A stretch of DNA of 64,000 nucleotides from an uncultured Fibrobacteraceae bacterium (GCA_964461255.1 CAYWTR010000004.1:46395-110394), one strand, 5' to 3'. Counted from the first letter of the stretch, positions 8,225 through 56,337 are shown. Made by a program: numbers and translations. Notes: generated by a model not told the origin, from the letters alone.

Positions 8225-8239
8225 GTTCACCGGGTGAAC
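8225..8239. promoter_or_regulatory. Perfect 15-bp palindrome GTTCACC-G-GGTGAAC upstream of HNH paralogue 1 (candidate operator)
   Basis: Arms GTTCACC/GGTGAAC are exact reverse complements. A related perfect palindrome, TTTTACCCGGGTAAAA, sits at the equivalent position upstream of HNH paralogue 2. Confidence 0.45.
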
Positions 8240-8269
8240 GGGGACGCGATCATTTTTTCATTTTTCCCC

Positions 8270-8298
8270 TTGCGGCCTGATCGAATATTCGCTATATT
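8270..8298 (+). promoter_or_regulatory. Sigma70-type promoter (-35 TTGCGG, 17-bp spacer, -10 TATATT) of HNH paralogue 1
   Basis: Strong -10 and acceptable -35 at the canonical 17-bp spacing, inside an AT-rich island. The 26-nt block containing the -10 (ttcgctatattttcgtct(t)tctccg) is 24/26 identical to the block upstream of paralogue 2. Confidence 0.5.
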
Positions 8299-8350
8299 TT
8301 CGTCTTCTCCGGATCAACACCACCCTTCCTCCCGGTTGGGATCGATCGCG

Positions 8351-9802
8351 ATGGGTTCGATGGCGCAGGTCCAGTGGGGCGGGCAGGCGGCGGAGCGTGC
8401 CGTCGCCGGCGGATCGGAGGGAGCGGTTCGCGGGGGCGTTCCGCCGTTGTCGGCGCTCGATGCTCGGCAGCTGCATGCCCGCATCCTCGCCTCGCTGCGC
8501 GAGCAGCAGCGGGCGGAGCGGCGCTCGGTCATCTGGTTCGCCGAGCTGATGGCGCGGCGTCTGTACCGCGAATTCGGGCACTCCAGCATCCAGCAATACG
8601 CTGCCATCGCCCTGGGCTTCTCGCGCGCGAAGACCTCGTACTTCGTCCACCTGGCCGATGCCTTCGCGCGCCTGCCCGGACTGCGGGCCGAAGTCGCCGC
8701 CGGTCGCCTGGGCTGGACCAAGGCGCGGGCCGTGGCGCGGGTCGCCACTCCCGCCACCGAAGCGCGCTGGCTGGAGATAGCGCGGCGGGTTTCGCGCAAT
8801 GAACTCGAGCGCCGCATCGCCGCGGCGCGGGCCAGAGCGAGGGCGTCCAAGGAAGGGGCGGCGGCGGTCGCGCGGGCCGAGCCGGCGGCGCAGCCGGCGC
8901 CGGCTGTTGCGCCAGCGCAGGCCGCGCAGCCAATGCCAGCCGAGCAGCCCGCGCAGCCAATGCCGGCCTTGCTGCCGCTGGCCGGCATCGCGACGGCGGG
9001 CGGCCCGGGAGCCGAACCGGAAACGCCCATCACGCTGACGCACCGTTGGACGCCCGTGCAGTATGCGCGGTACGAGGCGCTTCTGGAGAGGGTGCGCAAG
9101 GTGGCGGCCGTGCCGCGCGGCGCCACGCGCGAGGAGATCCTGCTGGCGGCGCTCGACGCGTTGGGCAGTGTGCCGTTCGTGACGATGTCGACCGGTGTCG
9201 ACTCGACCGCGGGCGCCGACCCGGGGGCAAGCGATGCCTCTGCCACCGGCACCGCCGCCACCGCCCCGGCCATTGCCCTGGCCGCCGCCCCGGCCGCTGC
9301 CCCTGCCGGCCCCCCGGCCGCCGCCCCCGCCGCCGCGGGCTCGCGCTATCAGATCATCATCTACAAGTGCCGGGAGTGCGACCGGGGCGAGGTGCGCACT
9401 TCGCTGGGGGCGCGGACCCTGTCGCCCGCGCAGATGGCGGCGGTGGAGTGCGACGCGGCGGTGCTCGGGGACGACGGCCGCAACCGGGCTACCGTGCCGC
9501 CGGCGATGCGGCGGGCCGTGCTGGCACGCGACGGGCATCGCTGCCGGGCTCCGGGGTGCGGGCGGACTCGCTTCCTCGAGGTCCACCATCGCCTGCCGCG
9601 CGAGCGGGGCGGGGACAACCGACCGGACAACCTGATAACGCTCTGCTCGGCCTGCCATCGGATCTGGCATGAACTGGCGGCGACGCCAAACCTCGCGCGG
9701 TTGTTCGCGCGAGCGCCGGGTGCGCCGCCGGCGCAGGAGACCGAGCGGTCGCCGGGCCCGGCGACGGCCCTCGACCTTGCGTCAGGTCGGCCGGGGCCGT
9801 AA
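8351..9802 (+). CDS. HNH endonuclease domain protein (DUF222-like N-region plus C-terminal HNH nuclease), paralogue 1
   Basis: C-terminal CRAPGCGRTRFLEVHHRLPRERGGDNRPDNLITLCSACHRIWHE is an HNH motif. The N-region shares a conserved core with the 54772-56247 protein. The start is chosen at the first ATG downstream of the conserved promoter; the ORF is open from 8234. Confidence 0.7.
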   Translation: MGSMAQVQWGGQAAERAVAGGSEGAVRGGVPPLSALDARQLHARILASLREQQRAERRSVIWFAELMARRLYREFGHSSIQQYAAIALGFSRAKTSYFVHLADAFARLPGLRAEVAAGRLGWTKARAVARVATPATEARWLEIARRVSRNELERRIAAARARARASKEGAAAVARAEPAAQPAPAVAPAQAAQPMPAEQPAQPMPALLPLAGIATAGGPGAEPETPITLTHRWTPVQYARYEALLERVRKVAAVPRGATREEILLAALDALGSVPFVTMSTGVDSTAGADPGASDASATGTAATAPAIALAAAPAAAPAGPPAAAPAAAGSRYQIIIYKCRECDRGEVRTSLGARTLSPAQMAAVECDAAVLGDDGRNRATVPPAMRRAVLARDGHRCRAPGCGRTRFLEVHHRLPRERGGDNRPDNLITLCSACHRIWHELAATPNLARLFARAPGAPPAQETERSPGPATALDLASGRPGP

Positions 9803-9830
9803 GCTTTGCACCCCTTCCCGAGGAGAGCGC

Positions 9831-10745
9831 ATGGTCTACCGCATCGCCGCCGTCTCCTATCTCAATGCCTGGCCGTTGGTCGCGGGACTGAGCGGCGGGC
9901 ATGTGCAGCCGCCGGCCGGACGCAAGATCGAACTGCAGCACGAAGTGCCGAGCGTGCTCGCCGAGCTGCTGTTCGCCGGCGAGGCCGACGTCGCCCTGGT
10001 GCCGATCGTCGAGCACTTCCGCGGCATGGGAGCGGGTCTGGTGCCGGGCATCGGCATCGCCTGCCAGGGGCCGGTCGAAAGCGTCAAGCTGTTCACGCGG
10101 GTAACGCCGGCGGCGATCGGGCGCGTGCAGGTCGACAAGGGATCGCGCACCTCGGTGGCGCTTCTGCGGATCCTGCTGGCGGAGATGTTCGACGTGCGGC
10201 CCGATTTCTACGTGGCCGAGCCCAAGGTCGACGAGCTGCTGCGCAACGAGGAGGCGGCGCTGGTCATCGGCGACCGCTGCTTCGAGGCCGAGGCGCGCTT
10301 CCGGCGCGAGGGGGTGCTGGCGCCCGTGGCCGCGGCGGCGCCTTCGACCGGCGCGGTCGTGGCGGCCCATGATCTGGGCGAACTCTGGCATCGCCTGACG
10401 GGTCTGCCCTTCGTTTTCGCGGCCTGGATGCTGGGGCGCGGCTTCGTCCAGGATGCCGGCGCGGAGCAGACCACGGCGCTGGCCGATCTGCTCACCGCCG
10501 CGCGCGACTGGGGGCTGGCGCACCTGGACGAGCTGGCGGAGCGGGCCGCTGCCGAGGGCAGGCCCGGGCCGTCCGGGGATGGCACGGCCGCAAGCATCCG
10601 GCGCTACTTCGCCGAGAACATCCGCTACACGCTTGGCGAGCGGGAACTGGCCGGGGCGCAGCGCTTCCACGAGCTGTGCGTCCGGCACTGCATCTGCCCC
10701 GCCGGCCGGTCGCTGGCGCTGGCGGCCGCGGCCGAGCAGGCCTAA
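9831..10745 (+). CDS. mqnA: Chorismate dehydratase MqnA (futalosine pathway of menaquinone biosynthesis)
   Basis: N-terminal YRIAAVSYLNAWPLV is the hallmark of the MqnA/MqnD periplasmic-binding-like fold, and the SYLN variant is typical of MqnA. 305 aa, adjacent to an Mqn radical SAM enzyme. RBS ggagag upstream. Confidence 0.75.
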   Translation: MVYRIAAVSYLNAWPLVAGLSGGHVQPPAGRKIELQHEVPSVLAELLFAGEADVALVPIVEHFRGMGAGLVPGIGIACQGPVESVKLFTRVTPAAIGRVQVDKGSRTSVALLRILLAEMFDVRPDFYVAEPKVDELLRNEEAALVIGDRCFEAEARFRREGVLAPVAAAAPSTGAVVAAHDLGELWHRLTGLPFVFAAWMLGRGFVQDAGAEQTTALADLLTAARDWGLAHLDELAERAAAEGRPGPSGDGTAASIRRYFAENIRYTLGERELAGAQRFHELCVRHCICPAGRSLALAAAAEQA

Positions 10746-10824
10746 CTTGCCCGCGGTCCTGCGATCGTAACTGGTTTCGCCGTTTCAAGTTGAGGGATGC
10801 CGTGTCGAGCAGGGAGATGGGCGC

Positions 10825-12090
10825 GTGATCGGCCGCGAGCCCGACCTCGCGGGCGCAGGCGACGGATCGGCCGCGCCGGCGACGCCCGCGGCAGCCGCCG
10901 TGCCGGCGGCAGCCGCCGCGCCCGCGGCAGCCGCGACGCCGGCCGAGGCCGCCATCGTCGATCGGGTGCCGCACTCCTCGTCGGCGGAGGCGCTGGCCAT
11001 ACTGGCCGAGGCCGAGCAGGAGGGGAGGCGGCTGACCGGCGGCGAGCTGCTGCTGCTGTTCGAGGAAGCGGCGCTGCCCGATCTGGGACGGGCCGCGCAC
11101 GCCCTGCGCCTGCGGCGCAGCGATCCGCGGCTGGTGACCTATGTCATCGACCGCAACGTCACCTACACCAACCTGTGCTACACGGATTGCCTGTTCTGCG
11201 CCTTCAACCGGCATGACGGCGCGGACGACGCCTACGTGCTCGGCCTCGACGAGATCCTGGCCAAGGTTCGATCGGTGGTAGCGGCGGGGGGCAACCAGAT
11301 CCTGCTGCAGGGCGGTCACCACCCGCGGCTGAAGCTGCCCGACTACGAGGCCATGCTGGCCGCGATCAAGAGCGCGCACCCCGACATCTGGATCCACGGC
11401 TTCTCGCCGTCGGAGATCAAGCACATCGCCAAGCTGTCCCGGGTATCCACGCGCGAGACCCTCAAGCGCTTGCAGGCGGCGGGGCTGGCCTCGATCCCCG
11501 GCGGCGGCGCGGAGATCCTGAGCGACCGCGTGCGCGGGCTGCTCGCGCCGCGCAAGACGACCGCCTTCGAGTGGACCTCGATCATGGAGGAAGCGCACGC
11601 GCTCGGCCTGCGCAGCACGGCGACCATGATGTTCGCGCACGTCGAGACCTTCGTCGAGCGGGTCGAGCACCTGCTGCGACTGCGCGAGAGCCAGGACCGC
11701 ACCGGCGGCTACAACGCGTTCATCTGCTGGACCTATCAACCGCACCACACGCCGCTCAACGACCATCCCGAGCTGGTGGCCCAGGTGCGGGCTCGCGGCT
11801 ATCAGGGAGCGCTCGACTACCTGCGCACCCTGGCGATCGCGCGCATCGCCCTGGATAACTTCCCCAACGTGCAGGCGTCGTGGGTGACGCAGGGCAAGGC
11901 CATCGGCCAGATGACGCTGCACTTCGGCGCCAACGACCTGGGCAGCACGATGATGGAGGAAAGCGTCGTCTCGGCGGCCGGCACCGTCCACTGCCTCAGC
12001 CAGGACGACCTCAACGAGATGGCGCGCGGCGCGGGCTTCGTGCCCGCCGTGCGCGACAACGGCTACCGCGTGCTGCGCGTGCTCGACTGA
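10825..12090 (+). CDS. Radical SAM enzyme of the MqnE/MqnC family (aminofutalosine synthase or cyclic dehypoxanthinyl-futalosine synthase)
   Basis: CYTDCLFCAF CxxxCxxC cluster. The GGNQILLQGGHHP and FICWTYQPHHTPL family signatures and its position adjacent to mqnA support the assignment. Has an Ala-rich N-terminal extension and a GTG start. Confidence 0.75.
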   Translation: MIGREPDLAGAGDGSAAPATPAAAAVPAAAAAPAAAATPAEAAIVDRVPHSSSAEALAILAEAEQEGRRLTGGELLLLFEEAALPDLGRAAHALRLRRSDPRLVTYVIDRNVTYTNLCYTDCLFCAFNRHDGADDAYVLGLDEILAKVRSVVAAGGNQILLQGGHHPRLKLPDYEAMLAAIKSAHPDIWIHGFSPSEIKHIAKLSRVSTRETLKRLQAAGLASIPGGGAEILSDRVRGLLAPRKTTAFEWTSIMEEAHALGLRSTATMMFAHVETFVERVEHLLRLRESQDRTGGYNAFICWTYQPHHTPLNDHPELVAQVRARGYQGALDYLRTLAIARIALDNFPNVQASWVTQGKAIGQMTLHFGANDLGSTMMEESVVSAAGTVHCLSQDDLNEMARGAGFVPAVRDNGYRVLRVLD

Positions 12091-12263
12091 CCGCGCGTGC
12101 AGTCGCCTCACCCCGGTTCGCCACGAATCAGCGTTTTTTTGTCCTACTTGCTTGATTTTTTATCTCATAAGTGTTCCGGAAACCTGTATAATGATTTCAC
12201 AAGCTCAAATTCATGCATCAATGACCTGACAGTCCGCCGTGCGGCGGGGGGAAGGAGATCGCC

Positions 12264-12836
12264 ATGAAGAGGCAATTGTCCAGGGCTGTGCGCCGTTGCG
12301 CCTGCGCGGCGGGGTTGGTGCTGCTCGTCGCCGCCGCGGCGTCCGCCGACCAGGTCGTCATCACGCTCGACGCCAATCCCGGCACGGCCTGCAACACGCC
12401 GTGGCACGAAGCGTCGTGCGAGCTGGTCTTCCTGCCCACCACCACCCAGGACTGCATCGTCGCCGGCCAGCTCGGCTACTGCTACCCCTCGTGGCTGTCG
12501 ATCGGCCTGGGCACGGGGATCGGCGTGACGCCCGCCCGCATGCGCGTCGATTTCAGCGCCATCCAGGGGGTGCGGTCGGTCCAGCTGCAGATCTACGAGG
12601 CGCACGAGCTGGGCTGCACGCGCGCCTTCCTCTACAGCGGCAGCACGCTGGTCGATTCGGCCGGCAGCCAGTACACCGGCAGCAACCACTGGATCGAGCT
12701 GGACGCGGGCTCCCATGACGTGGACCACCTGTTCGTGTCGGGGCACGAGGGCTACTGCTGGGAGATCAGGCTGATCGGCGACACGCTGGTCGACACCGCG
12801 GGCAGCACCTGGGGAGCGCTCAAGGCGCTGTACTAG
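12264..12836 (+). CDS. Secreted Cys-rich hypothetical protein
   Basis: Signal peptide (AAGLVLLVAAAASADQ). Strong RBS (gggggaaggagatcgccATG). AT-rich promoter island upstream containing TATAAT. Balanced, non-repetitive composition. Confidence 0.5.
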   Translation: MKRQLSRAVRRCACAAGLVLLVAAAASADQVVITLDANPGTACNTPWHEASCELVFLPTTTQDCIVAGQLGYCYPSWLSIGLGTGIGVTPARMRVDFSAIQGVRSVQLQIYEAHELGCTRAFLYSGSTLVDSAGSQYTGSNHWIELDAGSHDVDHLFVSGHEGYCWEIRLIGDTLVDTAGSTWGALKALY

Positions 12837-12842
12837 CGGCCG

Positions 12843-14105
12843 CTATTCCAGCTTCAGCCACTCGGTGCCGTAGATCTCGCGGGGGAAGATCTTCGGCGCC
12901 AGGCCGTAGAGGAACTGGCGCAGCTTCAGCGCCAGGTGATTGGCGGCGTGCGCGCCGCAGACGGTGCGCAGGTAGCCCTCCAGGGTGTAGATCTGGACCT
13001 CCACCGGGAAGCGGTACGGCGGCCGGCCGGCGGCGGTGTTGGGGTAGAGGATGCTGACATCTCCCTTGAAGACGCGGTAGCCGCGGCCGGAGTGCACGTT
13101 GAGCTGCGCGCGGTCGCGCGGGTCGGCGATGGTGTCGACGACGTTGCGCCAGCCGACCGGGCGGCCGACGATCTCGTCGAGCAGGCGCAGCAGGTCGTCC
13201 AGGGCGTCGTCGTCGTGGACGATGAACATGGCGCCGATGACGTCGGTGATCTCGCTGGGGTTGTTGATGCCCTTGCGGATCATCTTCGAGACGATCGAGC
13301 CGCTGCTCTGGCGGCGCATGTCGCCCCAGCGCTTGCGTTCGAGCACGCGGTGGCGGCCCTCGACGATCTCGTACGAGACGGCGTCCACCGTGCGCTTGAA
13401 GCGGCAGTTGTAGTACAGGATGTCGAGCGCGATCTTGCCGCGCTCCAGGAAGATCGAGCGGAAGGTCCAGCGCTGCTGCCCCTCGGTCGGGCGCAGGCTG
13501 TAGTTGATGGTGTCGCCGTCGGCGTCGATGCTGTAGCCGATCTCGACCTCGTGCACCTGCCGCGCGTGGCGCCACAGCCCCTTCTGCAGCCGCTCCTCGA
13601 AGTACGCCTTGTGCCGGGGTCCGTCCTGGATGTGGCGCGATTGGTCGATCTCCAGGAACAGGCTGGCCAGGTAGAGCTTGCGTTGCGCCTCGTAGCGCTC
13701 GCGGCGGTCGGTGGCGCCGAAGACCACGTCCAGCAGCGCGCGCAGGTCCTCGCAGGCGGTCACGCCGGGCAGCGGCTGGACGGCGTGCGCGGCGTGCGCG
13801 GGCAGCAGGTTGACCAGCTCGCGCAGGTAGGTGTCGGTCTCGCGCAGGTACTCGGCCATGCGCGCGGCGTCGCGCGCTCCCGCCGGCGGCGTGCCGGCGG
13901 GGTGCAGAAGGCTGGCCAGCGCCTGGCGGTAGGCGTCGTCGTCCTGGCGGATCCGCTCGTAGAAAAGCCGGAAGAAACGCCGCTGGCGCGACGGGCGTTC
14001 GGCCAGCAGCGGATCGAGCAGCGGGTGGGCGGCGTAGTCGACCTGCCAGATGTGATCGCCGGCCGGCTCGCGCAGATGATCGGCCGCCACCCACTGCTCG
14101 AACAT
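12843..14105 (-). CDS. RelA/SpoT-family nucleotidyltransferase ((p)ppGpp-synthetase-like) domain protein with ~270-aa uncharacterised N-terminal region
   Basis: The C-terminal half aligns by eye to the RSH synthetase core: SIVSKMIRKG...ITDVIGAMFIV matches SIYRKM...DLIAIRCV, and PVEVQIYTLEGY...CGAHAANH matches PIEIQIRTxxMH...GVAAHWxYK. There is no HD-hydrolase HD/ED motif. The start lies 25 nt downstream of the PLP enzyme gene. Confidence 0.6.
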   Translation of the reverse strand: MFEQWVAADHLREPAGDHIWQVDYAAHPLLDPLLAERPSRQRRFFRLFYERIRQDDDAYRQALASLLHPAGTPPAGARDAARMAEYLRETDTYLRELVNLLPAHAAHAVQPLPGVTACEDLRALLDVVFGATDRRERYEAQRKLYLASLFLEIDQSRHIQDGPRHKAYFEERLQKGLWRHARQVHEVEIGYSIDADGDTINYSLRPTEGQQRWTFRSIFLERGKIALDILYYNCRFKRTVDAVSYEIVEGRHRVLERKRWGDMRRQSSGSIVSKMIRKGINNPSEITDVIGAMFIVHDDDALDDLLRLLDEIVGRPVGWRNVVDTIADPRDRAQLNVHSGRGYRVFKGDVSILYPNTAAGRPPYRFPVEVQIYTLEGYLRTVCGAHAANHLALKLRQFLYGLAPKIFPREIYGTEWLKLE

Positions 14106-14130
14106 GCCCGCCTCCGGGCGCCGGCGGCCG

Positions 14131-15318
14131 TCAGACCTGCGCCAGCGCCTGCTCCAGGTCGGCCTGCAAGTCGGCCACGTCCTCGCAGCCGACCGCGATG
14201 CGCACCAGGTCGTCGGAGATGCCGATCGCCAGGCGCTCCGCGGGCGCGATGCCGGCGTGCGTCATCGACGCCGGGTGCTCGATGAGGGTCTCGATGCCGC
14301 CCAGGCTGACGGCCAGCGTCGCCAGCTTGACGCTGTTGATCAGCTTCTTGCCCGCGGCCAGCCCCCCCTTGACGCCGAAGGAACAGACGGCGCCGCCGCC
14401 CGCCATCTGCCGGCGCATCAGGTCGTGCTGCGGGTGGCTGGGCAGGCCGGGGTAGCGCACCCACGCCACCTTGGGGTGGCTCTCCAGCCAGGCCGCCAGG
14501 ATCTCGGTGTTGCGCTGCGCCCGCTCCAGGCGCAGGCCCAGCGTCTTGACGCCGCGCAGCACCAGCCAGGCCTGATGCGGGTCCATGGTGCCGCCCACGT
14601 TCTGGTGGACCTTGCGCAGCCGGGCCAGGTGCTCCTCGCGCTTGGCCACGACGATGCCGGCGACCACGTCGGTGTGCCCGTTGATGAACTTGGTCATGCT
14701 GTGCAGCACGATGTCCGCGCCCAGCGCCAGCGGCTGCTGCAGCAGCGGCGTGGCGAAGGTGTTGTCGACCGCCAGCAGCGCGCCGCCGCGGTGCGCGATG
14801 TCGGCGCAGGCCGCCAGGTCGGTCAGCTTGAGCGTGGGGTTGGCCGGCGACTCGACGTAGACCAGCCGCGTCTCGGGCCGCAAGGCCGCCTTCACCTGGT
14901 CCAGGTCGGACGAATCGACGAAGGTCGCGGTGATGCCGAAGCGCGCATACTCCTGCTCCAGGATCAGGCGCGACGGGCCGTACAGCGCCTCGGTGGCGAC
15001 GATGTGCGTCCCCTGCTCCAGCAGCGCCAGATAGACCGTGTTGACGGCCGCCATGCCGGTGGCCGCGCCGAGCGCGCCGCAGCCCCCTTCGAGCACGCTG
15101 ATGCACTCCTCCAGCGCCGCGGTCGTCGGGTTGCCCAGCCGCGTGTACTTGTAGCCGGGATCGCGCCCGCTGAAGCGGGCCGCCCCCTCGTCGGCGTCGC
15201 GGAAGGCGAAAGTGGAGGTCTGGTAGATCGGGGTGCTGACGGCGCCGGTGCGCGGGTCGGTGTGCTGGCCCGCGTGGATGATCCGGCTCTGGGGGCGCAG
15301 GCGCGCTACGTCGGCCAT
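14131..15318 (-). CDS. Cys/Met-metabolism PLP-dependent enzyme (methionine gamma-lyase / cystathionine gamma-synthase family)
   Basis: Family signatures: PIYQTSTF, the SMTKFINGHTDVV lysine-PLP motif, and the GGIETLIEHPASMTH C-terminal region. Start chosen at the ATG with an aaagga RBS. Confidence 0.8.
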   Translation of the reverse strand: MADVARLRPQSRIIHAGQHTDPRTGAVSTPIYQTSTFAFRDADEGAARFSGRDPGYKYTRLGNPTTAALEECISVLEGGCGALGAATGMAAVNTVYLALLEQGTHIVATEALYGPSRLILEQEYARFGITATFVDSSDLDQVKAALRPETRLVYVESPANPTLKLTDLAACADIAHRGGALLAVDNTFATPLLQQPLALGADIVLHSMTKFINGHTDVVAGIVVAKREEHLARLRKVHQNVGGTMDPHQAWLVLRGVKTLGLRLERAQRNTEILAAWLESHPKVAWVRYPGLPSHPQHDLMRRQMAGGGAVCSFGVKGGLAAGKKLINSVKLATLAVSLGGIETLIEHPASMTHAGIAPAERLAIGISDDLVRIAVGCEDVADLQADLEQALAQV

Positions 15319-15412
15319 GACATGTCCTTTCAGGGGCGATGCGGCTTGAGGGGCGATGATCGCCTCCCTATAATAGACCGCCGCTGACGGTGCGCCAAAT
15401 CCGGAGGTTCCC

Positions 15413-38336: not shown

Positions 38337-38527
38337 GCGGGCACCGGCCGAACGCGACGCGCTTCGCGACCGAGCAACACTGCTTGCCGCCGGCGCTGAC
38401 ATCTCGATATTTCCTGGCATGACACAGGCGGCGTCCCGGCCTGACAGATTGGCTGTCTGGTCGTCGAGAAGAGACGGGCGTGCTTTCTATATTATTTTAT
38501 TGCAAAGTTTTAATGGCGCAATCCCCC

Positions 38528-38543
38528 TGGCCTGCCCCTTGCA
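38528..38543 (+). promoter_or_regulatory. Sigma-54-like -24/-12 promoter (TGGCCT-N5-TTGCA) upstream of the Hsp20 triple cluster
   Basis: The GG and GC elements are at consensus spacing, inside an AT-rich island ~70 nt upstream of the first hsp20 ATG. Confidence 0.35.
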
Positions 38544-38615
38544 AAACCGCCCCGCGTCGGCGCTGAGCGCGCCATCATTCGAGCGATGACAAAACCAGCA
38601 GAGGAGGTCACGGCC

Positions 38616-39059
38616 ATGTGGATGTCACCGTGGCTTGCTCCCGGCGGGGGCCGGGACGTGTGGGACGAGTTCGATCAGCTGCGGGCGGGGGTGGATCGGC
38701 TGCTGCGCAACCACTGGACCGAGGGCGAGGCGCCGGCCGGCAGCGCGATGAACGTCTGGAGCGGCGACGAGGACATCGTCGTCACCATGCTGGCGCCCGG
38801 GCTGGGTCCGGAGCAGATCGAGATCGCCGTCGAAGGGCAGGAGCTGATCATCGGCGCCCGGCCGGCCAAGGAGCCTCAGGAAGAGCGCCGCTGGCTGCTG
38901 CGCGAACGCCGCAGGCCGCGTTTCGCCCGCCGGCTGCGCCTGCCGTACCAGGTCGACACCGGCAAGATCGAGGCGACGGTGCGCAACGGCGTGCTGCGGG
39001 TTGTCGCCCCGCGCGCCGAAGAGGACAAGCCGCGCCGCATCAAGGTGCAGGGCGCCTGA
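38616..39059 (+). CDS. Small heat shock protein, Hsp20/alpha-crystallin family (1 of 3)
   Basis: Alpha-crystallin domain (IEIAVEGQELIIGAR...GVLRVVAPR). RBS gaggagg. Confidence 0.8.
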   Translation: MWMSPWLAPGGGRDVWDEFDQLRAGVDRLLRNHWTEGEAPAGSAMNVWSGDEDIVVTMLAPGLGPEQIEIAVEGQELIIGARPAKEPQEERRWLLRERRRPRFARRLRLPYQVDTGKIEATVRNGVLRVVAPRAEEDKPRRIKVQGA

Positions 39060-39092
39060 GGCCGCTGGTGGCTGGGTAAGGAGGACGAAGCG

Positions 39093-39479
39093 ATGAACCA
39101 CGAATTGCAGACGCGGACGGCCGGCGGCGGCGAGCCCGTGAGGAGCTGGCCGCAGATCGAGCCGCGGGTCGACGCCTGGCGCGACGCGCAGGGTGTCGTG
39201 ATGGAAGTCGAGCTGCCCGGCGTGGGCAAGGACTCGATTGAGATCCAGGTCGAGCGAGACATCCTGACCATCGTGGGGCACGGCGCCGAGTTCGACAACG
39301 GCGACCGACAGCTGACGCACCAGGAGTACCGCATCGGCGACTATCGCCGCGAATTCACCCTGCCCGACGATGTCGACCGCGATCGGGTCGAGGCGGCGAT
39401 CGAGCAGGGGGTGCTGCGCATCCGCCTGCCGCTGGCCGAGCAGGCCAGGCCGAGGCGGATCGATATCAAGACCACCTGA
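39093..39479 (+). CDS. Small heat shock protein, Hsp20 family (2 of 3)
   Basis: Alpha-crystallin domain (IEIQVERDILTIVGHG...GVLRIRLP). RBS aaggagg. Confidence 0.8.
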   Translation: MNHELQTRTAGGGEPVRSWPQIEPRVDAWRDAQGVVMEVELPGVGKDSIEIQVERDILTIVGHGAEFDNGDRQLTHQEYRIGDYRREFTLPDDVDRDRVEAAIEQGVLRIRLPLAEQARPRRIDIKTT

Positions 39480-39525
39480 GAGATACCGTTCGGCGCGTCA
39501 ACGCGCGCGCGAAAGGAGGTTCGCG

Positions 39526-40029
39526 ATGAGCATGCGAGAACTGGTTCCCTGGAGCTGGGGCAGGCGGGAGGCGAGCCTCGCGCCGGCCGCCGGCCACGAC
39601 CCTTTCCTGGCGCTGCAGCGCCAGATCGACGACCTGTTCAACGGCTTCGCGCGGTCGGTCGGCTGGCCGGGCGCCGGCACGGCCGAGCGGGCGGCGCTGC
39701 TGCCCAGCGTCGACCTGGTGGACGACGGCGACAAGCTGGTGCTGACCGCCGAGTTGCCCGGCATGAGCGAGAAGGAAATCGAGCTGACGCTGCGCGAGGG
39801 GGCGCTGGTCATCCAGGGCGAGAAGCGGGAGGAGCGCGAGGTCAAGGACAAGGACGTCTACCGCCTGGAACGCAGCTATGGTAAGGTGCACCGCGCCGTG
39901 CCGCTGCCGTGCGCGGTGAAGGAGGACGCCATCAAGGCCTCCTTCAAGCACGGCATCCTGACCGTGAAACTGCCTAAGCAGGAAGGCGCGGCGGACCGCA
40001 GCCGCCGGATTCCGGTCGCCGCCGGCTGA
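39526..40029 (+). CDS. Small heat shock protein, Hsp20 family (3 of 3)
   Basis: Alpha-crystallin domain (LVLTAELPGMSEKEIELTLREGALVIQGE...GILTVKLPK). RBS aaaggagg. The longer ORF from 39370 overlaps gene 2. Confidence 0.8.
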   Translation: MSMRELVPWSWGRREASLAPAAGHDPFLALQRQIDDLFNGFARSVGWPGAGTAERAALLPSVDLVDDGDKLVLTAELPGMSEKEIELTLREGALVIQGEKREEREVKDKDVYRLERSYGKVHRAVPLPCAVKEDAIKASFKHGILTVKLPKQEGAADRSRRIPVAAG

Positions 40030-50900: not shown

Positions 50901-50981
50901 CGCGCCGGGCACCGCCAGCTTGCAGCGCGCCCCCGACGGGCGCGGATCGTGTGAACGTGCGGGGGAGGCTAGGGTGGTCAT
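47925..50981 (-). CDS. Secreted S8 (subtilisin-like) serine peptidase with C-terminal T9SS-type sorting domain
   Basis: His (GHGTAVMGVV) and Ser (GTSSASPIVVGAVAAL) motifs. The C-terminus (HPNPFNPQTRIDW...GVYLIRL) is a T9SS CTD. aaggag RBS at the 50981 start. Confidence 0.75.
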   Translation of the reverse strand: MTTLASPARSHDPRPSGARCKLAVPGARPRRRGPGHFVLMSPWRRRGAGLATLLLTLLVVVVAAAGQARAAAAGGAALPPSVLLEMQTPAPTGRIVVKFVEAAGVIIGDDGVRSRSPGKGEPARIQLLLAQAAPGAVIARRFSRDAGALDAARRAAEARTGGRLPDLNTWAQLTPSPSVRGDRASLLAIVKRLLADPLVEYAFLEPVAVPAMLGFDAFTGDVPGEAVRGEAVRGGAARGAAAPGGDAAPASSTPDYSSLQGYLEPAPTGVGALAMAAQPGALGAGVNVIDVEGAWLWSHEDLALPYVELGAPINNLGWRNHGTAVMGVVRGEAGNALGVRGIAPQVGFGGSSIGDQSVADAISNAAAALAPGDIILIELHAPGPNANGSGQYGYVPMEFWQDNFDAMVHATAAGVIVCEAAGNGQQNLDDPIYQGLFDRQVRDSGAIMCGASNGASLGAAWFTNNGTRVDLHGWGFNVTTTGYGALQGDPLPETEWYTNAFNGTSSASPIVVGAVAALQGMVKTAYGFPLDARLARDILLQTGTPHTGTVLIGPRPDLVAAWDLAAGGIGQVAGVVRDAGTLQPLSDVRVEVSETGAFDLTGDAGGYGFALLPGAYQLAFSSFFYGSVTEAVAISGGATTVRDVVLTPLPTVTLAGRVYDTAGSGLGGVRIAPLGTPLASAASGAGGDFSLAGAPAGLTYTLRFDGKPGFGADVRQVTAVSPPDLQPMIFQELPAAAETFEAGEGGFTSSDPAVWSHGVPSGGAGPAAAFSGLRCWGVGMEGDYLDDQHGELTSPAYDFSAAPRLHLSFHFWSATEPGFDGVQLQVQSGGDWTVVTPLTGYSDQILGGLGNGAGWSGATGEWRGAVFDLSPWRGPALRFRLVFGSDAGVTGAGFWVDDIAFDTGDVVTAVGSDGQLGGAADGPPARSGPALAAHPNPFNPQTRIDWRTGGAGPLRIDVHDVRGRLIRRLLDEPVAANAGAVTWDGHDAGGRPAPSGVYLIRLRDAAGGSALLSVLLAK

Positions 50982-51259
50982 TCAGCGGCTCCTTGCATTC
51001 ATCACGGCATTGATCATGCCATCCTTCACGACCCGGCCGCGTGCCCGCCAATGTCCTGGCGGCCAGCGATCGGGGGCCGGCGACCGGAGACCGGCTCGCT
51101 GCGGCCGGCTCGCTGCGGCCGACGCGCTCCGGATTGCGGGGTGCGCCGCCAGGCCTGGTCTGCTATTAATTCTAAGGCCTAATATCGGTGCGATGCCGGC
51201 TTTCTTCACCTGGGCCGGGCCATCGGCCGGTCGGCGGAATCGGTGCCGGGAGGGTCCGC

Positions 51260-52099
51260 ATGAAACGGATGCGCGGGATCAAGATCGGAATGTCCATGTC
51301 GATGCTGGCTCTTACCGTGATGGGGGCGGCCGCCGCGGCGGTGACCACAACGCCCGGAACTCCGGGAGAGCCCGTGCTCGAGAGCCCCACGCAACTGCTC
51401 GCGGCGACCGCCGCTGACCCGCCCGCGGCCCCGCCCGCGGCCCCAACGGCCGCGGCTGTCGCGCCGCCGTCGGCCGCGCCTGCCTCGCCGGCAGCGCCGG
51501 CCGCGCCAGCCGCGCCCGCCTCGCCGGCTCCTCCGGACGCGTCGCCTGCGGCCGCGCCCGCCTCGCCGGCTCCGCCGGACGGGGCGCTGTACGCCGTGCA
51601 CGAATCCGAGCGAGGCCCCGTGCTGCTCGGCGAGGTTGTGCGCGCCGACCTCATCAGGCATTTCCCGGGCTGGGCCGACACCGCGTCCGCCTATGTTCCC
51701 GATCTGGAGGCCGTGGCGGTGTTGGCGGCCGTCGACCGCGACGTCACGGTCACCTGCGTGCTCGGCACCTGGTGCTCTGATTCGCGCCGCGAGGTGCCGC
51801 GCTTCTGGAAGGTGCTCGATCTGGCGGCCAATCCCCGGCTGAGCCTGCGCATGCTCGCCGTTGGCCGTCGCGACGACGATGCGGCCCAGGCGCGTCTGGT
51901 CCAGCTGGGATTCGACGCCGACATCCGCGGCCAGTATGGGGTCGAGTATGTGCCGACCTTCATCTTCAGCGAGACCGGCGATGGATCCGAACTCGGACGC
52001 ATCATCGAAAGCCCCGCTGCGACGCTCGAGCGCGACGCCGCCGCGATTCTCTTGGTGCCCGCCGCGCCGGATCACGCGCCGGCGCAGGGCTGGCGCTAG
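51260..52099 (+). CDS. Secreted thioredoxin-fold protein with Pro/Ala-rich linker, hypothetical
   Basis: Signal peptide and PA-rich low-complexity region. The C-terminal region with a WC motif (VTCVLGTWCSDSRRE) suggests a thioredoxin-like fold. The assignment is tentative. Confidence 0.4.
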   Translation: MKRMRGIKIGMSMSMLALTVMGAAAAAVTTTPGTPGEPVLESPTQLLAATAADPPAAPPAAPTAAAVAPPSAAPASPAAPAAPAAPASPAPPDASPAAAPASPAPPDGALYAVHESERGPVLLGEVVRADLIRHFPGWADTASAYVPDLEAVAVLAAVDRDVTVTCVLGTWCSDSRREVPRFWKVLDLAANPRLSLRMLAVGRRDDDAAQARLVQLGFDADIRGQYGVEYVPTFIFSETGDGSELGRIIESPAATLERDAAAILLVPAAPDHAPAQGWR

Positions 52100-52159
52100 C
52101 CGCCCGAGACGGTTCGCCCGGCGATGACATCCGCACGCCTGAAGCCCGAAAGGACGATC

Positions 52160-53947
52160 ATGGAAACACGCGCGAAGCTCTCGGCGCTGAGGGCGCTGAT
52201 GAAGAAGGATGGACTGGACGCCTGCTACGTGCCGAGCACCGACCCGCATCAGAGCGAGTACGTGCCGCCCCTGTGGCAGCGCCGCGCCTGGCTGAGCGGT
52301 TTCACCGGTTCGGCCGGCGACCTGGTTGTGACACGGCGCAAGGCGGGGCTCTGGACCGACTCGCGCTACTTCCTGCAGGCCGAGGCGCAGCTGGCTGGCT
52401 CGGGCATCGAGTTGATGAAGCTGGGCGTGCCAGGCACTCCGGCGTTGACCTCGTGGGTGGCGCGGCAGCTGGGCGCGGGCGGCGTCTTCGGCGTGGACGC
52501 CCGGCTGCTGTCGCTGGCCGAGGCGGACGCCCTGGCCGGGGCCCTGGGCGAGGCCGGCGTCGAGGTTCGCTACCTCGACCGCAACCTGGTCGACGCCATC
52601 TGGCGCGACCGGCCCGCGCCGCGCACCGATCCGATCCGGCCGCACAGCAGGCTGTTCGCCGGCGAGACGACGGCGCACAAGCTGCAGCGGCTGCGGCTGG
52701 CGATGAAGGAGCTGGGCGCCCGTGCGCACGTGCTGGCGGCCCTGGACGCCATCGCCTGGCTGCTGAACATCCGCGGGCGCGACGTAGACTTCAATCCGGT
52801 TGTGATCGCCTACGCCATCGTCACCGAGCGCGACGCGGCGCTGTACGTCGATCCCCGCAAAGTCGGCGCGGCGGCCTTGAAGGCGCTGGCCGGCGAGGTC
52901 AAGGTCTTCGACTACGACGCCTTCGGGGCGGCGCTGCGCGAGCTCGGCCGGCGCAAGTTGCCGGTGCTGCTCGACCCCCAGACCACCAATCGCTGGGTGG
53001 CGGACCGCCTGGGCCGCGCGCCGATCGTGCGCGCCGCCTCGCCGGTGGCGGCGTTCAAGGCGGCCAAGAACCGCGTGCAGATGAAGGGCTTCGTCGATTG
53101 CCACGTCCGCGACGGCGTCGCGATGGTGAAGTTCCTGAAATGGCTGCAGGCGGCCGTGCCCAAGGGAGGCGTGACCGAGCTGTCCGCCGCCGAGCGCCTG
53201 GCGGAGCTGCGCGCCGAGGGCGCCCACTATCAAGGCCCCAGCTTCAACACCATCAGCGCTTACGGCGCCCACGGGGCCATCGTGCACTATGCCGCAGACG
53301 CGCGCAGCAACGCCAAGCTGCGCCCGCGTGGCCTCTATCTGATCGACTCGGGCGGTCTCTACCTGGACGGCACCACGGACATCACCCGCACCGTCGCCCT
53401 CGGACCGCCGACCGCCAGGCAGAAGGAGGCATTCACGAGGGTGCTGCAGGGCAACATCAACCTCAGCCGCACCCCGTTCCCCGCCGGCACGTCAGGCCAA
53501 AGGCTGGAGATGTTCGCGCGCCAGCCCCTGTTCCTGGCGGGCATGAACTACGGCCACGGCACCGGCCACGGCGTGGGTCACTACCTCAGCGTTCACGAAG
53601 GACCGATGGGCCTGACGCCCAAGGACGTGCGCAACGTTCCGCTGCAGCCGGGCAACCTGCTGTCGATCGAACCGGGCTACTACAGGGCGGGCGCTTACGG
53701 CATCCGCATCGAGAACCTCGGTTTCGTGATCCGCGACGACAAGCTCAGCGGCCCCGACGGCGACTGGTACCGCTGGCTCATCATCACGATGTGCCCGATC
53801 GAGCGGCGGCTGATCGACCGCCGGCTGCTGTCGCAGGATGAGCGCGACTGGCTCAACGCCTATCATCTGCGCGTTCTGCGCACGCTGGCGCCGCACCTGG
53901 ACGCCGCGCACCGCGCCTGGCTGGCCGCCGCCACGCGCCCGCTCTGA
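52160..53947 (+). CDS. pepP: Xaa-Pro aminopeptidase (M24B, aminopeptidase P)
   Basis: Creatinase-like N-domains plus M24 pita-bread domain with HGTGHGVGHYLSVHEGP and metal-ligand spacing. aaagga RBS. Confidence 0.8.
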   Translation: METRAKLSALRALMKKDGLDACYVPSTDPHQSEYVPPLWQRRAWLSGFTGSAGDLVVTRRKAGLWTDSRYFLQAEAQLAGSGIELMKLGVPGTPALTSWVARQLGAGGVFGVDARLLSLAEADALAGALGEAGVEVRYLDRNLVDAIWRDRPAPRTDPIRPHSRLFAGETTAHKLQRLRLAMKELGARAHVLAALDAIAWLLNIRGRDVDFNPVVIAYAIVTERDAALYVDPRKVGAAALKALAGEVKVFDYDAFGAALRELGRRKLPVLLDPQTTNRWVADRLGRAPIVRAASPVAAFKAAKNRVQMKGFVDCHVRDGVAMVKFLKWLQAAVPKGGVTELSAAERLAELRAEGAHYQGPSFNTISAYGAHGAIVHYAADARSNAKLRPRGLYLIDSGGLYLDGTTDITRTVALGPPTARQKEAFTRVLQGNINLSRTPFPAGTSGQRLEMFARQPLFLAGMNYGHGTGHGVGHYLSVHEGPMGLTPKDVRNVPLQPGNLLSIEPGYYRAGAYGIRIENLGFVIRDDKLSGPDGDWYRWLIITMCPIERRLIDRRLLSQDERDWLNAYHLRVLRTLAPHLDAAHRAWLAAATRPL

Positions 53948-53952
53948 CGGCG

Positions 53953-54864
53953 ATGATCAGTTCGCACCTGGGCGAGGTCTTCGCGGTCGCCACCTCCTTG
54001 ACCTGGGCCTGGGGATCGATGCTGTTCACGGCCGCCGGCCGCCGCGCCGGCGCGGCGGCCGTGAACTTCGCCCGCCTGCCGCTCGCGGTTCTGCTGCTGG
54101 GCCTGACGCACCTGGCGCTGCACGGACGCCTCTGGCCCGCCGAGGCGCACGGCGCTCCGCATCTCTGGTTGATCGCCAGCGGGGTCGTCGGCCTGACGGT
54201 GGGCGACTCGTTCCTGTTCCACGCCTTCGCAACCGTCGGCCCCCGCCGCGCGATGCTGATGTACTCGACCGCGCCGCTCTTCACCGCGGTGACGGCCTGG
54301 TTTCTGCTGGGCGAGCATCTGGGGCCGGCCGCCCTGGCCGGCATGGGGCTGATCCTGGCCGGTGTCGGGTTGGCCAACGCGCGCCGCGACCCGGGCGGCG
54401 GGCCCTTCCGCGACCTGCCGCGCGCGCTGTACCGTCGCGGCATGGTCGCTGGTCTGCTCGGCGGCGCCTGTCAGGGCGTGGGGGCCACCTTCGCCAAGCT
54501 GGGCATGGTCGCCATGGCGCCGCTGCCGGCCACGTTGGTGAGGATGACCTGGGCGGCGGCGGCCATGACGGCCGCCGCGCTGCTGAGCGCGCGCGCCGCC
54601 GGCCTGGTCCGCCGGTTCCAGGCAGACCGCCGCGCGCTGGCGGCACTGCTCGGCGCCGTCGTGCTTGGCCCTTACCTGGGCGTCTGGATGTCGCTCGCCG
54701 CCTTCCGGCACGCCGACACCGGCGTCGCCATGGCCCTGATCGGCACCGTGCCGATCACGGTCCTGCTTCCTTCATGGATCGTCTATCGCGACCGTCCCTC
54801 CTCCGCGAGCCTGCTGGGCGCCCTGGTCGCGGTGGCGGGGGGCGCCGTGCTCTTTCTGCGCTGA
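53953..54864 (+). CDS. EamA/DMT-superfamily transporter
   Basis: Ten TM helices with two EamA repeats. Composition and length (303 aa) are typical. Confidence 0.7.
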   Translation: MISSHLGEVFAVATSLTWAWGSMLFTAAGRRAGAAAVNFARLPLAVLLLGLTHLALHGRLWPAEAHGAPHLWLIASGVVGLTVGDSFLFHAFATVGPRRAMLMYSTAPLFTAVTAWFLLGEHLGPAALAGMGLILAGVGLANARRDPGGGPFRDLPRALYRRGMVAGLLGGACQGVGATFAKLGMVAMAPLPATLVRMTWAAAAMTAAALLSARAAGLVRRFQADRRALAALLGAVVLGPYLGVWMSLAAFRHADTGVAMALIGTVPITVLLPSWIVYRDRPSSASLLGALVAVAGGAVLFLR

Positions 54865-56247
54865 CCTCGGCTGGCCCGGCGTGCGGCGAACGTCCCCGGC
54901 GCTCACGCCGGCATGGTGCTCCGGCCGGGCGGTGGCTGCGGGCCAGGCATGCTCGTTCTCGTGGCGGAATCGATGGCAGGAAGAGCAGAGCGTGATCAGG
55001 TTGTCCAGATCGTTACCGCCTCCCAGTGCGCGCGGCCGCAGATGATGCACCTCGAGAAACCGCGTGTGCGCACAGCCCGGAGCCCGGCAGCGGTAGCCAT
55101 CTCTCGCCAGGACGCGCCGTCGCACTGCCGGAGGGATGACCTGGCGTCGTTGTCCGGCGCGATTCTCCCGCACCGCGTCGCACTCGACCGCCGCCGCCGT
55201 CGCGCCGGCCAGCGCACGCGGTCCCAACGTGGTCGCGACGGCAGAGCCGCCGCAGCGGTCGCACCTCTGCACGACGATCTGGTAGGGTGCCCGGCCGGCA
55301 TGACGGCGGGCGCGGCCGGTATCATCGTCGCCGCCCGCGCGCCGCTCTCCGCCGCCGAGCACGCCGTCATCGTCGTCGTCGCCGCCCGCGCGCCGCTCTC
55401 CGCCGCCGAGCACGCCGTCGTCGTCGTCATCCGCCCGGCTGTCGCGTGGCGGCGCGGCAGCCGATAGAGCCTCGAGCGCCGCCAGGATCAGTTCTTCGCG
55501 GCCATGTCCGGGCGGCACCAGTCTGGCGCGTCGCACCTGCTCGACCAGGGCCTCGTAGCGCGCGCGCTGCAACGGCGAAAACTGCAAGTGGACGCCGCAC
55601 ACGGTCTCGCCGGCGGGCGGTGCGGCCATGGCGGCATCGCTTGCCGGCAGGGGAAGCTGCGGCGCGGCCAGCTCTGCCGCACGGGTCAGCTTGCCGCTGC
55701 GGCGCCGCGCCGGGCCGCGAATTGCCGCGATTCGCCGCTCCAGCTCGGCGCGGCTGGTGTTTTGGGCCGCATGCAGCCAGCTCTCTTGCGTGTCCGGTGT
55801 GGCGACCTTGACCAGCTCGCGCGCCTTGGTCCAGGACAAGCCTCCTGCGGCGACGGCGTGCCGCAGACGCGGCAGACGGGCCAGTGCGGCGGCCAACCTG
55901 AGATACTGCGAGGTCCGCGCAGGCGAGAAGCCGAGCGCTGAGGCCGCGTACTGGTGGATGGTGGCGTGACCCAGCTCGCGGTAGAGCCGGCGGCGGCTGA
56001 TCTCGTCGAACCACAAGACGGAACAGCGTTCGGCCTGGCGCATGGCGCCGAGAGCGCACATCAGCGCGCGGTGAGCCTCCTGAGCGGAGCATCCCTTCCT
56101 GAACGCCGGCGGCGTGCTGTTCCGGTTCCCCCCGTCGGCAGGACCGATTTCCCGGGCCCGGGCGGCTGCGGTCTTGGCTGGCATTGAGGTGAACACCTCC
56201 ATGGGCCACGCACGGTGGCCGGCCGAAGTTTGGAGCCAGCGTTTCAT
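54772..56247 (-). CDS. HNH endonuclease domain protein (DUF222-like N-region plus C-terminal HNH), paralogue 2, inverted relative to paralogue 1
   Basis: HNH motif CRAPGCAHTRFLEVHHLRPRALGGGNDLDNLITLCSSCHRFRHE. Conserved blocks shared with the 8351 gene (LYRELGH...IHQYAA.ALGFS.A.TS.Y..LA.A.ARLP.LR..VAAG.L.WTKAR...VATP; YQI..Q.C..C; AVECDA). The start is among three in-frame ATGs (56247, 56202, 56184). Confidence 0.65.
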   Translation of the reverse strand: MKRWLQTSAGHRAWPMEVFTSMPAKTAAARAREIGPADGGNRNSTPPAFRKGCSAQEAHRALMCALGAMRQAERCSVLWFDEISRRRLYRELGHATIHQYAASALGFSPARTSQYLRLAAALARLPRLRHAVAAGGLSWTKARELVKVATPDTQESWLHAAQNTSRAELERRIAAIRGPARRRSGKLTRAAELAAPQLPLPASDAAMAAPPAGETVCGVHLQFSPLQRARYEALVEQVRRARLVPPGHGREELILAALEALSAAAPPRDSRADDDDDGVLGGGERRAGGDDDDDGVLGGGERRAGGDDDTGRARRHAGRAPYQIVVQRCDRCGGSAVATTLGPRALAGATAAAVECDAVRENRAGQRRQVIPPAVRRRVLARDGYRCRAPGCAHTRFLEVHHLRPRALGGGNDLDNLITLCSSCHRFRHENEHAWPAATARPEHHAGVSAGDVRRTPGQPRSAQKEHGAPRHRDQGAQQARGGGTVAIDDP

Positions 56248-56268
56248 TGCGTAGCGGAGAAAGACGAA

Positions 56269-56297
56269 AATATAGCGAAAATTAAAGGCCGGCGCAA
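56269..56297 (-). promoter_or_regulatory. Sigma70-type promoter (-35 TTGCGC, 17-bp spacer, -10 TATATT) of HNH paralogue 2
   Basis: Same architecture and nearly the same sequence as the promoter at 8270-8298; the 26-nt block containing the -10 (ttcgctatattttcgtct(t)tctccg) is 24/26 identical. Confidence 0.5.
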
Positions 56298-56321
56298 GTG
56301 GAAATCTGTTCTTCCCTGCAT

Positions 56322-56337
56322 TTTTACCCGGGTAAAA
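56322..56337. promoter_or_regulatory. Perfect 16-bp palindrome TTTTACCCGGGTAAAA upstream of HNH paralogue 2 (candidate operator)
   Basis: Exact self-complementarity. Shares the ACC(C)GGGT core with the palindrome at 8225-8239. Confidence 0.45.

Follow-up and report, generated by a model that had tools for sequence, protein, structure and literature searches.

The 13E12/REP13E12 genes of mycobacteria are repetitive genes of the DUF222-HNH type; they are abundant and their function is unknown. In Mycobacterium tuberculosis most of them are LexA-bound and damage-inducible (PMC3381160), and their loci are hotspots of gene conversion (PMC13061034). The two HNH genes described here, A and B, lie in a stretch of 64,000 nucleotides (nt) from an uncultured Fibrobacteraceae bacterium (GCA_964461255.1, CAYWTR010000004.1:46395-110394; hereafter the window), and their family is the counterpart of the mycobacterial genes in the Fibrobacterota-Chlorobiota-Bacteroidota (FCB) group. 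The reading favoured here, which we hold with somewhat better than even confidence, is that A and B are damage-controlled HNH nucleases with a ParB-like DNA-binding domain, each placed under an SOS-type operator and next to a palindrome, similar to parS or to the Noc-binding site (NBS), that the protein itself would bind. This locus and its relatives offer a testable anatomy of four parts for the DUF222-HNH genes, namely a reader domain of the ParB/KorB type, parS/NBS-like sites in and before the gene, a nuclease and a damage-type operator.

The likeness to the mycobacterial genes extends to several features. Both families consist of multi-copy chromosomal genes of ~1.2-1.4 kb that encode a helical N-terminal domain and an HNH nuclease. 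The analogy with REP13E12 drawn by an earlier annotation of the window, made from its sequence alone and referred to below as the original prediction, proved apt, as the family is multi-copy in relatives and some of its members match DUF222. More specifically, at least 8 full-length homologues (39-41% identity) carry precomputed PF02720 matches, whereas A and B themselves have no PF02720 (DUF222) match at E<=0.01. Damage control, known from LexA binding in M. tuberculosis, is suggested here by the shared promoter block, and the clustered sequence changes at both loci fit conversion, with donor sequences not identified here. Unlike the mycobacterial genes, the present family is found in FCB-group candidate phyla and not in Actinobacteria, its operator is a direct repeat and not a GAAC-N4-GTTC box, no role in phage attachment is visible, and A and B are too diverged to recombine. 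The 13E12 literature found gives no account of a ParB-like fold or of parS-like intragenic or upstream palindromes.

Relatives confirmed by tblastn number 402 in GTDB genomes (best matches 42-43%), and the analysis was carried out on the best 80. Among these, related metagenome-assembled genomes contribute 5-9 loci each, a lower bound on the copies per genome; the 64-kb window holds two copies. Homologues at 35-45% identity come almost exclusively from uncultured organisms, assigned to Krumholzibacteriota, Eisenbacteria, 'uncultured Fibrobacteraceae' or simply 'bacterium'. Paralogues within a genome are 82-90% identical in DNA over a unit of ~1.2-1.4 kb whose start lies a short way upstream of the promoter and whose end is at the stop codon or shortly before it. 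The family is absent from 72,556 plasmids and essentially absent from 2.9 million viral contigs, which gave one weak partial match.

Within this multi-copy gene family, A and B represent two members that diverged long ago. The open reading frames (ORFs) named in the original prediction, 8351-9802 (+) and 54772-56247 (-), were confirmed as intact HNH paralogues with 44% amino-acid identity, aligned end to end. The alignment comprises a conserved N-terminal region, a short helical middle region and a zinc ribbon with HNH domain that is 60% identical, together with low-complexity linkers that do not align. In A, a predicted ParB-like N-terminal domain (N-domain) is combined with a middle domain that is helical, with linkers that are disordered and with the zinc ribbon and HNH; B is built likewise. 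Both match Pfam HNH (PF01844; E 2e-9 and 3e-10), and the invariant C, H and N columns of the HNH and zinc sites are kept in both in the alignment. At the DNA level the conserved domains are ~70% identical, and the longest stretch of coding sequence that A and B have in common is 17 nt. The longest ORF of B begins at ATG 56247, just 22 nt past the -10 hexamer. The start codon is probably ATG 56184 instead, because a Shine-Dalgarno sequence (SD), GGAGG, precedes it and the product called in relatives agrees: its 453 amino acids (aa) equal the 470 aa counted from ATG 56184 minus a 17-aa repeat unit. The linker of B contains a 51-nt tandem repeat in two copies (55325-55428).

Sequence-level matches cover the HNH domain only (HfmIscB 2.7e-13, McrA 5e-10). 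A and B share with the HNH proteins of the McrA, IscB and group II intron types an HNH domain with a CxxC...CxxC zinc site, at scores far under the family cut-offs; unlike these, they have no RuvC, no guide-RNA region (Rfam negative) and no methyl-cytosine reader domain. Assignment to a named defence protein was rejected, as NCBIfam and PADLOC matched the HNH domain only, again far under cut-offs.

The regions upstream of A and B can be aligned over ~130 nt and contain a block of 19 nt, TTCGCTATATTTTCGTCTT, that is identical at both loci and is the longest identical run anywhere between them. With up to 3 mismatches allowed, the 64-kb window still has no further copy of this 19-mer; the number expected by chance is 0. 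The original prediction had counted 24 identities in a 26-nt block; the shared block is real, as the exact 19-mer, but a recount gives 22-23/26 ungapped and 22/23 over the core. Its promoter pattern, TTGCG(G/C)-N17-TATATT, occurs in the window at the A and B cassettes only, and its statement that the promoters are more conserved than the genes stands, the exact 19-nt non-coding block comparing with ~70% identity of the coding DNA. These hexamers are assigned as promoters because both are conserved across the family at 17-nt spacing, TTGnnn-17-TAtaTT being found at the same place in ~65/71 homologue loci. Both cassettes are AT-rich islands as described (GC 0.35-0.39 vs 0.716), but AT-richness is not special to them because four more such islands exist in the window, at intergenic or low-GC places.

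Within the block lies a direct repeat, TTCGC-N6-TTCGY, with an 11-bp period, which is found at promoters of Krumholzibacteriia as well as at the window genes. It occurs in two registers: in one it fills the spacer (CTTGCGA TTTCGCCAAATTTTCGC TATAAT), and in the other, that of the window, it straddles the -10 (TTCGC TATATT TTCGT). Because there are two registers relative to the -10, conservation of the repeat does not depend on the hexamers. A set of loci retrieved solely through protein similarity, and not by motif, 817 kb in all, contains TTCGY-N6-TTCGY 29 times, and 22 of these occurrences are directly upstream of HNH genes. A metagenome scan with the pattern TTGCG-N11-13-TTCGCTATATTTTCG returned 37 loci, where ~5 were expected by chance. 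An HNH homologue follows at 12 of the 37, and a possible distant one at one more (L111); two others are cut at the contig end and have the same leader as the HNH loci. At 13 loci the downstream genes are a RecA-like ImuA, a 510-aa ORF and a DnaE2-type polymerase, in that order; the remainder comprise dnaE2 alone (1/37), DinB-family genes (2/37) and unclassified loci (6/37). All 13 imuA promoters have a second, inverted copy of the motif over the start codon, and 5 of the 13 have a third phased repeat.

Together with lexA, the imuA-imuB-dnaE2 genes are considered to form the evolutionary core of the LexA regulon. Direct-repeat LexA boxes are also known, since the alphaproteobacterial box GTTC-N7-GTTC has the same 11-bp period (PMC4951493). 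The repeat described here resembles the SOS core and that box in consisting of tetramers or pentamers repeated at an 11-bp period, in lying over the core promoter and in standing upstream of imuA-imuB-dnaE2, dnaE2 and dinB; it differs from the alphaproteobacterial box in its unit, TTCGC and not GTTC, and in its lineage. Because the same block precedes imuA-imuB-dnaE2, dnaE2 and dinB, the shared block most probably represents an SOS-type operator that overlaps the -10 and not a plain sigma-70 consensus. The original prediction had proposed a shared regulation, which the operator-like repeat supports, and had named an ordinary sigma-70 consensus, common to many unrelated genes, as an outcome that would count against it, which is the less likely reading of a block placed before HNH and damage genes. 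TTCGC-N6-TTCGC is a candidate SOS operator for the poorly known Krumholzibacteriota, Eisenbacteria and their relatives.

A further element is found in the leader, where CCTCCC is present in 54/71 family members compared with 2.3% of control windows, and 51/71 have a strong SD able to pair with it. By folding, A keeps the CCTCCC/GGGA pair, and in B the SD sits within a small hairpin. Rfam gives no match over the whole window, and the leader belongs to none of the known RNA families.

At a fixed point just ahead of the zinc ribbon, within the disordered linker, nearly all homologues carry a palindrome of 14-26 nt that is perfect or close to it. At least 10 matched arm pairs are found in this linker window at 19/80 loci, compared with 19/799 control windows. 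The cores are CAC/GTG or CCC/GGG (also CCCC/GGGG), of which the former is the core of parS and CCC/GGG that of the NBS (PMC7383237). The same locus-specific palindrome also stands upstream of the promoter at 11/66 loci in a strict palindrome-centred test, compared with 1.05% of cross-locus pairs. This test replaced a 12-mer sharing test between upstream region and ORF, which has a background of 7.9%; by the looser measure of a shared 12-mer about six more loci show upstream recurrence, about a quarter in total. Judged from these sequence counts, the palindromes are a family-wide feature and not a product of chance.

In the window, the perfect palindromes that the original prediction placed upstream of A and B were both found, each unique in the 64 kb (0.01 expected for B). 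The half-site of palindrome B agrees with the Noc-binding half-site TATTTCCC at 6/8 positions, and a sequence near-identical to palindrome A, GTTCACCCWGGTGAAC, occurs upstream of and inside the homologue L010. The linker of A has an internal inverted repeat (9187-9202) with a loose relation to palindrome A, which lies inside a cluster of strain differences and is a weak counterpart of the intragenic palindrome of relatives. A role of the palindromes as terminators was rejected, as no terminator-like sites were called and no T-runs adjoin them.

Palindromes of this kind were also observed in other settings, and at a few loci they form arrays downstream of the gene. In the Eisenbacteria homologue L041, a unit of ~90 nt ending in CCGAGTACCCGGGTACACCGCCGC is repeated four times downstream of the gene (7250-7640), and the same palindrome occurs upstream of the gene and 6.2 kb off, an arrangement that recalls centromere-like or iteron-like arrays. 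A search around the stray palindromes of L018, L010 and L041 for a second HNH gene found none. A third palindrome class, GTTGCGCC-GGCGCAAC with the core GCC/GGC, is located upstream of and inside HNH genes among L092-L122 (e.g. L104, at -153 and +550); these loci carry the same SOS-like block, and the paired-site pattern extends with them to a new core.

The N-terminal domain is predicted by structural modelling to fold like the DNA-binding domain of ParB, Noc and KorB. In AlphaFold models of a compact homologue and of protein A, the N-domain is helical with a predicted local distance difference test score (pLDDT) >90, and disordered linkers, the zinc ribbon and the HNH domain complete the protein. 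Foldseek relates this domain to the Noc DNA-binding domain in complex with the NBS (6y93; target-normalised template-modelling score, TMt, 0.71) and to ParB (probability 0.99-1.0), and B has a weak Pfam HTH_ParB match (E=0.0044). Judged by eye from the alignment, the pattern LGFS..KT..F.RLA...LP.L...V..G.LGWTKAR parallels the helix-turn-helix (HTH)/GHAR region of ParB. The ParB-like domain, the intragenic palindromes of relatives and the link to DNA-damage genes are all absent from the original prediction.

As in ParB, Noc and KorB, whose palindromic sites are parS (TGTTTCAC-GTGAAACA), the NBS (TATTTCCC-GGGAAATA) and the KorB operator, an HTH DNA-binding domain of the ParB type is here accompanied by palindromes, which are candidate sites. 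Unlike in those proteins, the N-terminal ParB/Srx CTPase fold is absent, the models opening with the helices of the HTH domain and Pfam ParBc giving no match; no ParA partner is in view, and the C-terminus is a zinc ribbon with HNH and not a dimerisation domain. Published ParB-HNH fusions use the CTPase fold and not the HTH domain (PMC12704722).

One residue of the N-domain motif SS[R/S]RELE is paired with the core of the palindrome. It is Arg in 35/35 loci with a CCCGGG core and Ser, Asn or Cys in 24/24 loci with a CACGTG core (59/59 together), and the pairing holds among paralogues of one genome that are otherwise ~86% identical in the N-domain. A and B have Arg and upstream palindromes with a CC(C)GGG core. 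ParB and Noc differ by a Gly-to-Arg switch that reads the same base-pair difference from another position, the covarying residue here being in a later helix than ParB G201. Across the family, such site/residue pairs form a natural series in which the evolution of ParB-type specificity can be studied.

Comparison with close strains reveals where the two loci change. The window and contig L002 (99.75% identical) show 31 differences over 12.6 kb, 18 of them at locus A (8276-9239). Of these 18, the promoter block has 4, positions 8955-8960 have 4 and positions 9170-9239 have 10, almost all of them non-synonymous. At the block this close strain of A reads GTTC-GCTATAT-TTTC. B differs from L083 by a patch of 8 changes in the N-domain (55762-55793; TPDTQESWLH vs TPATQQRWLR) and by the 51-nt tandem repeat, present in 2 copies vs 1. 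Cassette B has 0 differences from L083 over 387 nt (55958-56344), and the DNA upstream of it is ~3% different. The patches at A and B look like micro gene conversion or diversifying change.

The sequence elements, their conservation across the family, the gene sets downstream of them, the predicted fold and the lack of rearrangement are observed. On the favoured reading, a sigma-70-type promoter would drive each gene, with its -10 between the two halves of the direct-repeat operator, and a repressor on that operator, most plausibly the LexA of the lineage (box GTTC-N7-GTTC, of the same layout), would occlude the -10. DNA damage would lift repression, and both paralogues would be expressed together with the imuA-imuB-dnaE2 mutagenesis cassette. 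The upstream palindrome would probably be bound by a dimer of the protein's own N-domain, as KorB and ParB are on operator and centromere, and this binding might give paralogue-specific autoregulation or might mark the place where the nuclease acts. CCUCCC in the leader could pair with the SD and damp translation. We infer in this way the binder of each site, induction by damage and the substrate of the nuclease. A bolder proposal, which we regard as rather unlikely, is that of damage-induced, self-addressed nucleases, in which the N-domain, after SOS induction, would dock on the parS-like palindromes at its own gene and promoter and at a few other places, and the HNH domain would nick or cut nearby, seeding paralogue conversion and rearrangement. 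If true, these loci would be programmed, stress-triggered recombination hotspots, which would explain the hotspots of conversion and inversion at mycobacterial 13E12 loci.

A number of observations weigh against damage-controlled, self-binding nucleases. The promoter block is not invariant, because 4/31 differences between the window and L002 fall inside it at A, at positions that vary across the family. A strict sigma-70 scan calls neither promoter A nor promoter B, TTGCGG matching TTGACA at 3/6 positions. The imuA and dinB loci come from other metagenomes and were picked by an exact 15-mer, so that the motif is common to them by construction and independent evidence comes from the gene enrichment only; the 1.13 Mb of DNA examined contains neither a lexA nor a recA gene. 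A matching intragenic palindrome is missing from both window genes, A having the loosely related repeat and B a decayed TGCCGGCCGGGCA, and in some subfamilies, such as the TTTACACGTGTAAA group, the upstream palindrome is unlike the internal one. With regard to the N-domain, the Foldseek E-values are weak (0.02-0.3), and a PDB sequence profile search returned matches to the HNH domain only and none covering the N-domain. The association of Arg or Ser with the core is confounded by phylogeny, perhaps representing 2-3 independent switches, and the residue does not correspond in position to ParB G201.

The nature of the shared block may be explained in other ways. A regulator other than LexA, such as a response regulator of the OmpR/PhoB type or a damage regulator like PafBC or DdrO, could act on a real operator and would still define a stress regulon. 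OmpR/PhoB-type regulators bind direct repeats with an 11-bp period, no lexA promoter is present in the DNA examined, and the LexA-independent RecA_NDp promoter is found at mycobacterial 13E12 genes as well; yet among LexA targets imuA-imuB-dnaE2 is the one best conserved across phyla, GTTC-N7-GTTC LexA boxes share the geometry, and the GTTC-GCTATAT-TTTC of the close strain speaks in the same sense, so that we consider a non-LexA regulator unlikely. It is a little more doubtful still that the block is merely an efficient sigma-70 promoter, inherited or homogenised by conversion, with no dedicated repressor. Inheritance is in keeping with hexamers that are both near those of other promoters in this genome, and it is opposed by the 11-bp phase that the TTCGC repeat holds in two registers relative to the -10, by the inverted second copy over the imuA start codon at 13/13 loci and by the presence of the block before unrelated DNA-damage genes. 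Conversion is suggested by 3/4 positions at which A differs from its near-identical strain and matches the state in B, and by the conversion hotspots at M. tuberculosis 13E12 loci (PMC13061034); simple conversion of the promoter block from B to A was nevertheless rejected, as A and B differ at 8277-8284, within any simple tract.

The remaining alternatives concern mobility and rearrangement. The palindromes might be bound not by the HNH protein but by another factor as its operators, or might be the recombination or cleavage targets of a selfish element of the homing or REP/RAYT-like type, the gene spreading by cutting there. Lineage-specific expansions, the sharply bounded repeat unit of 1.2-1.4 kb, sites that flank the promoter and N-domain module, extra copies or arrays outside genes (L041, L018, L010) and the concentration of strain differences and repeat indels in linkers would all suit such an element. 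We nevertheless regard it as improbable, given that the HNH gene is at the same site in 4/4 related contigs with no presence/absence polymorphism, that palindrome copies dispersed in the ~12 kb flanks of each locus are few, and that viral contigs and plasmids (above) lack the family but for that single match. Shuffling of modules at the intragenic palindrome was tried as an explanation and rejected, since identities in the N-half and the C-half agree with each other (r=0.70), a difference of >=0.25 is seen in no pair and no swapping is visible. No transposase, integrase, recombinase or phage gene is present in the window, including the 46-kb interval between A and B, and terminal repeats and target duplications were not noticed, no dedicated search for them having been made. 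Far less probable again is inversion of 8.3-56.3 kb by homologous recombination between A and B. The cassettes are in inverted orientation, and in M. tuberculosis large inversions are driven by recombination between 13E12 genes of high similarity (PMC13157036), but here the longest identical run is 19 nt with ~70% identity elsewhere, and four related contigs, collinear with the window at the A junction (L001/L002; 99.3-99.75% identity) and the B junction (L083/L084), keep A-upstream with A and B-upstream with B, a single orientation being seen. As the interval holds housekeeping genes, the contigs are collinear and no common run exceeds 19 nt, there is no support for inversion, for homing or for transposition. 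The mobile or homing module and the inversion-prone segment of the original prediction thus lack support, and no meaning is visible in the bracketing of ~46 kb by A and B, which appears incidental. The interval consists of ordinary chromosomal genes, comprising menaquinone (futalosine), subtilase, glycosyltransferase, histidine kinase, Sir2, GreA, RtcB, three Hsp20, UbiA, type II/IV secretion ATPase, peptidase and EamA transporter genes. Positions of the features at A and B are given in Table 1.

Table 1. Features of loci A and B, in window coordinates (-35 and -10, promoter hexamers).
Feature	Position	Strand	Description
HNH paralogue A	8351-9802	+	483 aa; intact ORF
A, ParB/Noc/KorB-like DNA-binding domain (predicted)	aa ~31-176; 8441-8878	+	AlphaFold (AF2) model and Foldseek
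A, zinc ribbon and HNH	aa ~333-445; 9347-9685	+	Pfam and alignment
HNH paralogue B	54772-56184	-	470 aa from ATG 56184 (probable start); 491 aa if start is 56247
Palindrome A	8225-8239		GTTCACCGGGTGAAC = GTTCAC-CGG-GTGAAC; perfect; parS-like arms; 30 nt upstream of -35; candidate site for ParB-like N-domain
Palindrome B	56322-56337		TTTTACCCGGGTAAAA = TTTTACCC-GGGTAAAA; perfect; 24 nt upstream of -35
Predicted promoter A	8270-8298	+	-35 TTGCGG 8270-8275; 17-nt spacer; -10 TATATT 8293-8298
Predicted promoter B	56269-56297	-	-35 TTGCGC 56297-56292; 17-nt spacer; -10 TATATT 56274-56269
19-nt block at A	8288-8306	+	TTCGCTATATTTTCGTCTT; exact; also in B cassette
19-nt block at B	56261-56279	-	TTCGCTATATTTTCGTCTT; exact; also in A cassette
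Direct repeat at A	8288-8292, 8299-8303	+	TTCGC 8288-8292, TATATT, TTCGT 8299-8303; straddles -10; candidate SOS-type operator
Direct repeat at B	56279-56275, 56268-56264	-	TTCGC 56279-56275, TATATT, TTCGT 56268-56264
Leader element A	8328-8341	+	CCTCCC 8328-8333, complementary to weak SD GGGA 8338-8341, ahead of ATG 8351
SD of B	56200-56196	-	GGAGG; inside hairpin GAGGT-GTTC-ACCTC (SD/start region 56186-56200), then ATG 56184
Internal inverted repeat in A linker	9187-9202		GTCGAC-CGGT-GTCGAC; encodes S-T-G-V-D-S

The surroundings of the promoters show some further features. Upstream of palindrome B is a promoter-like sequence, TTGCTA-17-AATAAT (56351-56379, -); if this distal promoter is real, palindrome B is downstream of it and upstream of the proximal one. 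G-rich tracts on the sense strand, such as (TGGGGCGGCGGG)n, lie just upstream of both AT-rich blocks (8068-8160, +; 56480-56545, -), and comparable G-runs are located upstream of many homologue loci and imuA promoters; all of these could form G-quadruplexes. In one subfamily (L092, L094, L095, L102, L104, L116, L118, L122, and also L019) an element CTGTATACAGTGTGC, or TACTGTAATCTATACAGTT in L019, is found ~30 nt upstream of the -35 and resembles the CTGT...ACAG SOS box of the E. coli type; other subfamilies have TAACT-N14-16-AGTTA inverted repeats where it would sit. The imuA-imuB-dnaE2 loci (L086, L088, L098-L101, L106, L107, L109, L113, L114, L117 and L119) have highly conserved promoters, with two or three phased TTCGC repeats and the inverted copy at the start codon, preceded by a conserved block, GGTTGGGGTAGGCACGAACGACG...GATCTTATCG.

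Elsewhere in the window, three consecutive Hsp20 genes (38586-40029, +) stand behind an AT-rich island (38391-38600). A low-GC stretch (531-1140; down to 39%, compared with 72% GC for the genome) lies inside a Wzy_C (O-antigen polymerase-like) gene, and this composition suggests that polysaccharide genes have been horizontally acquired.

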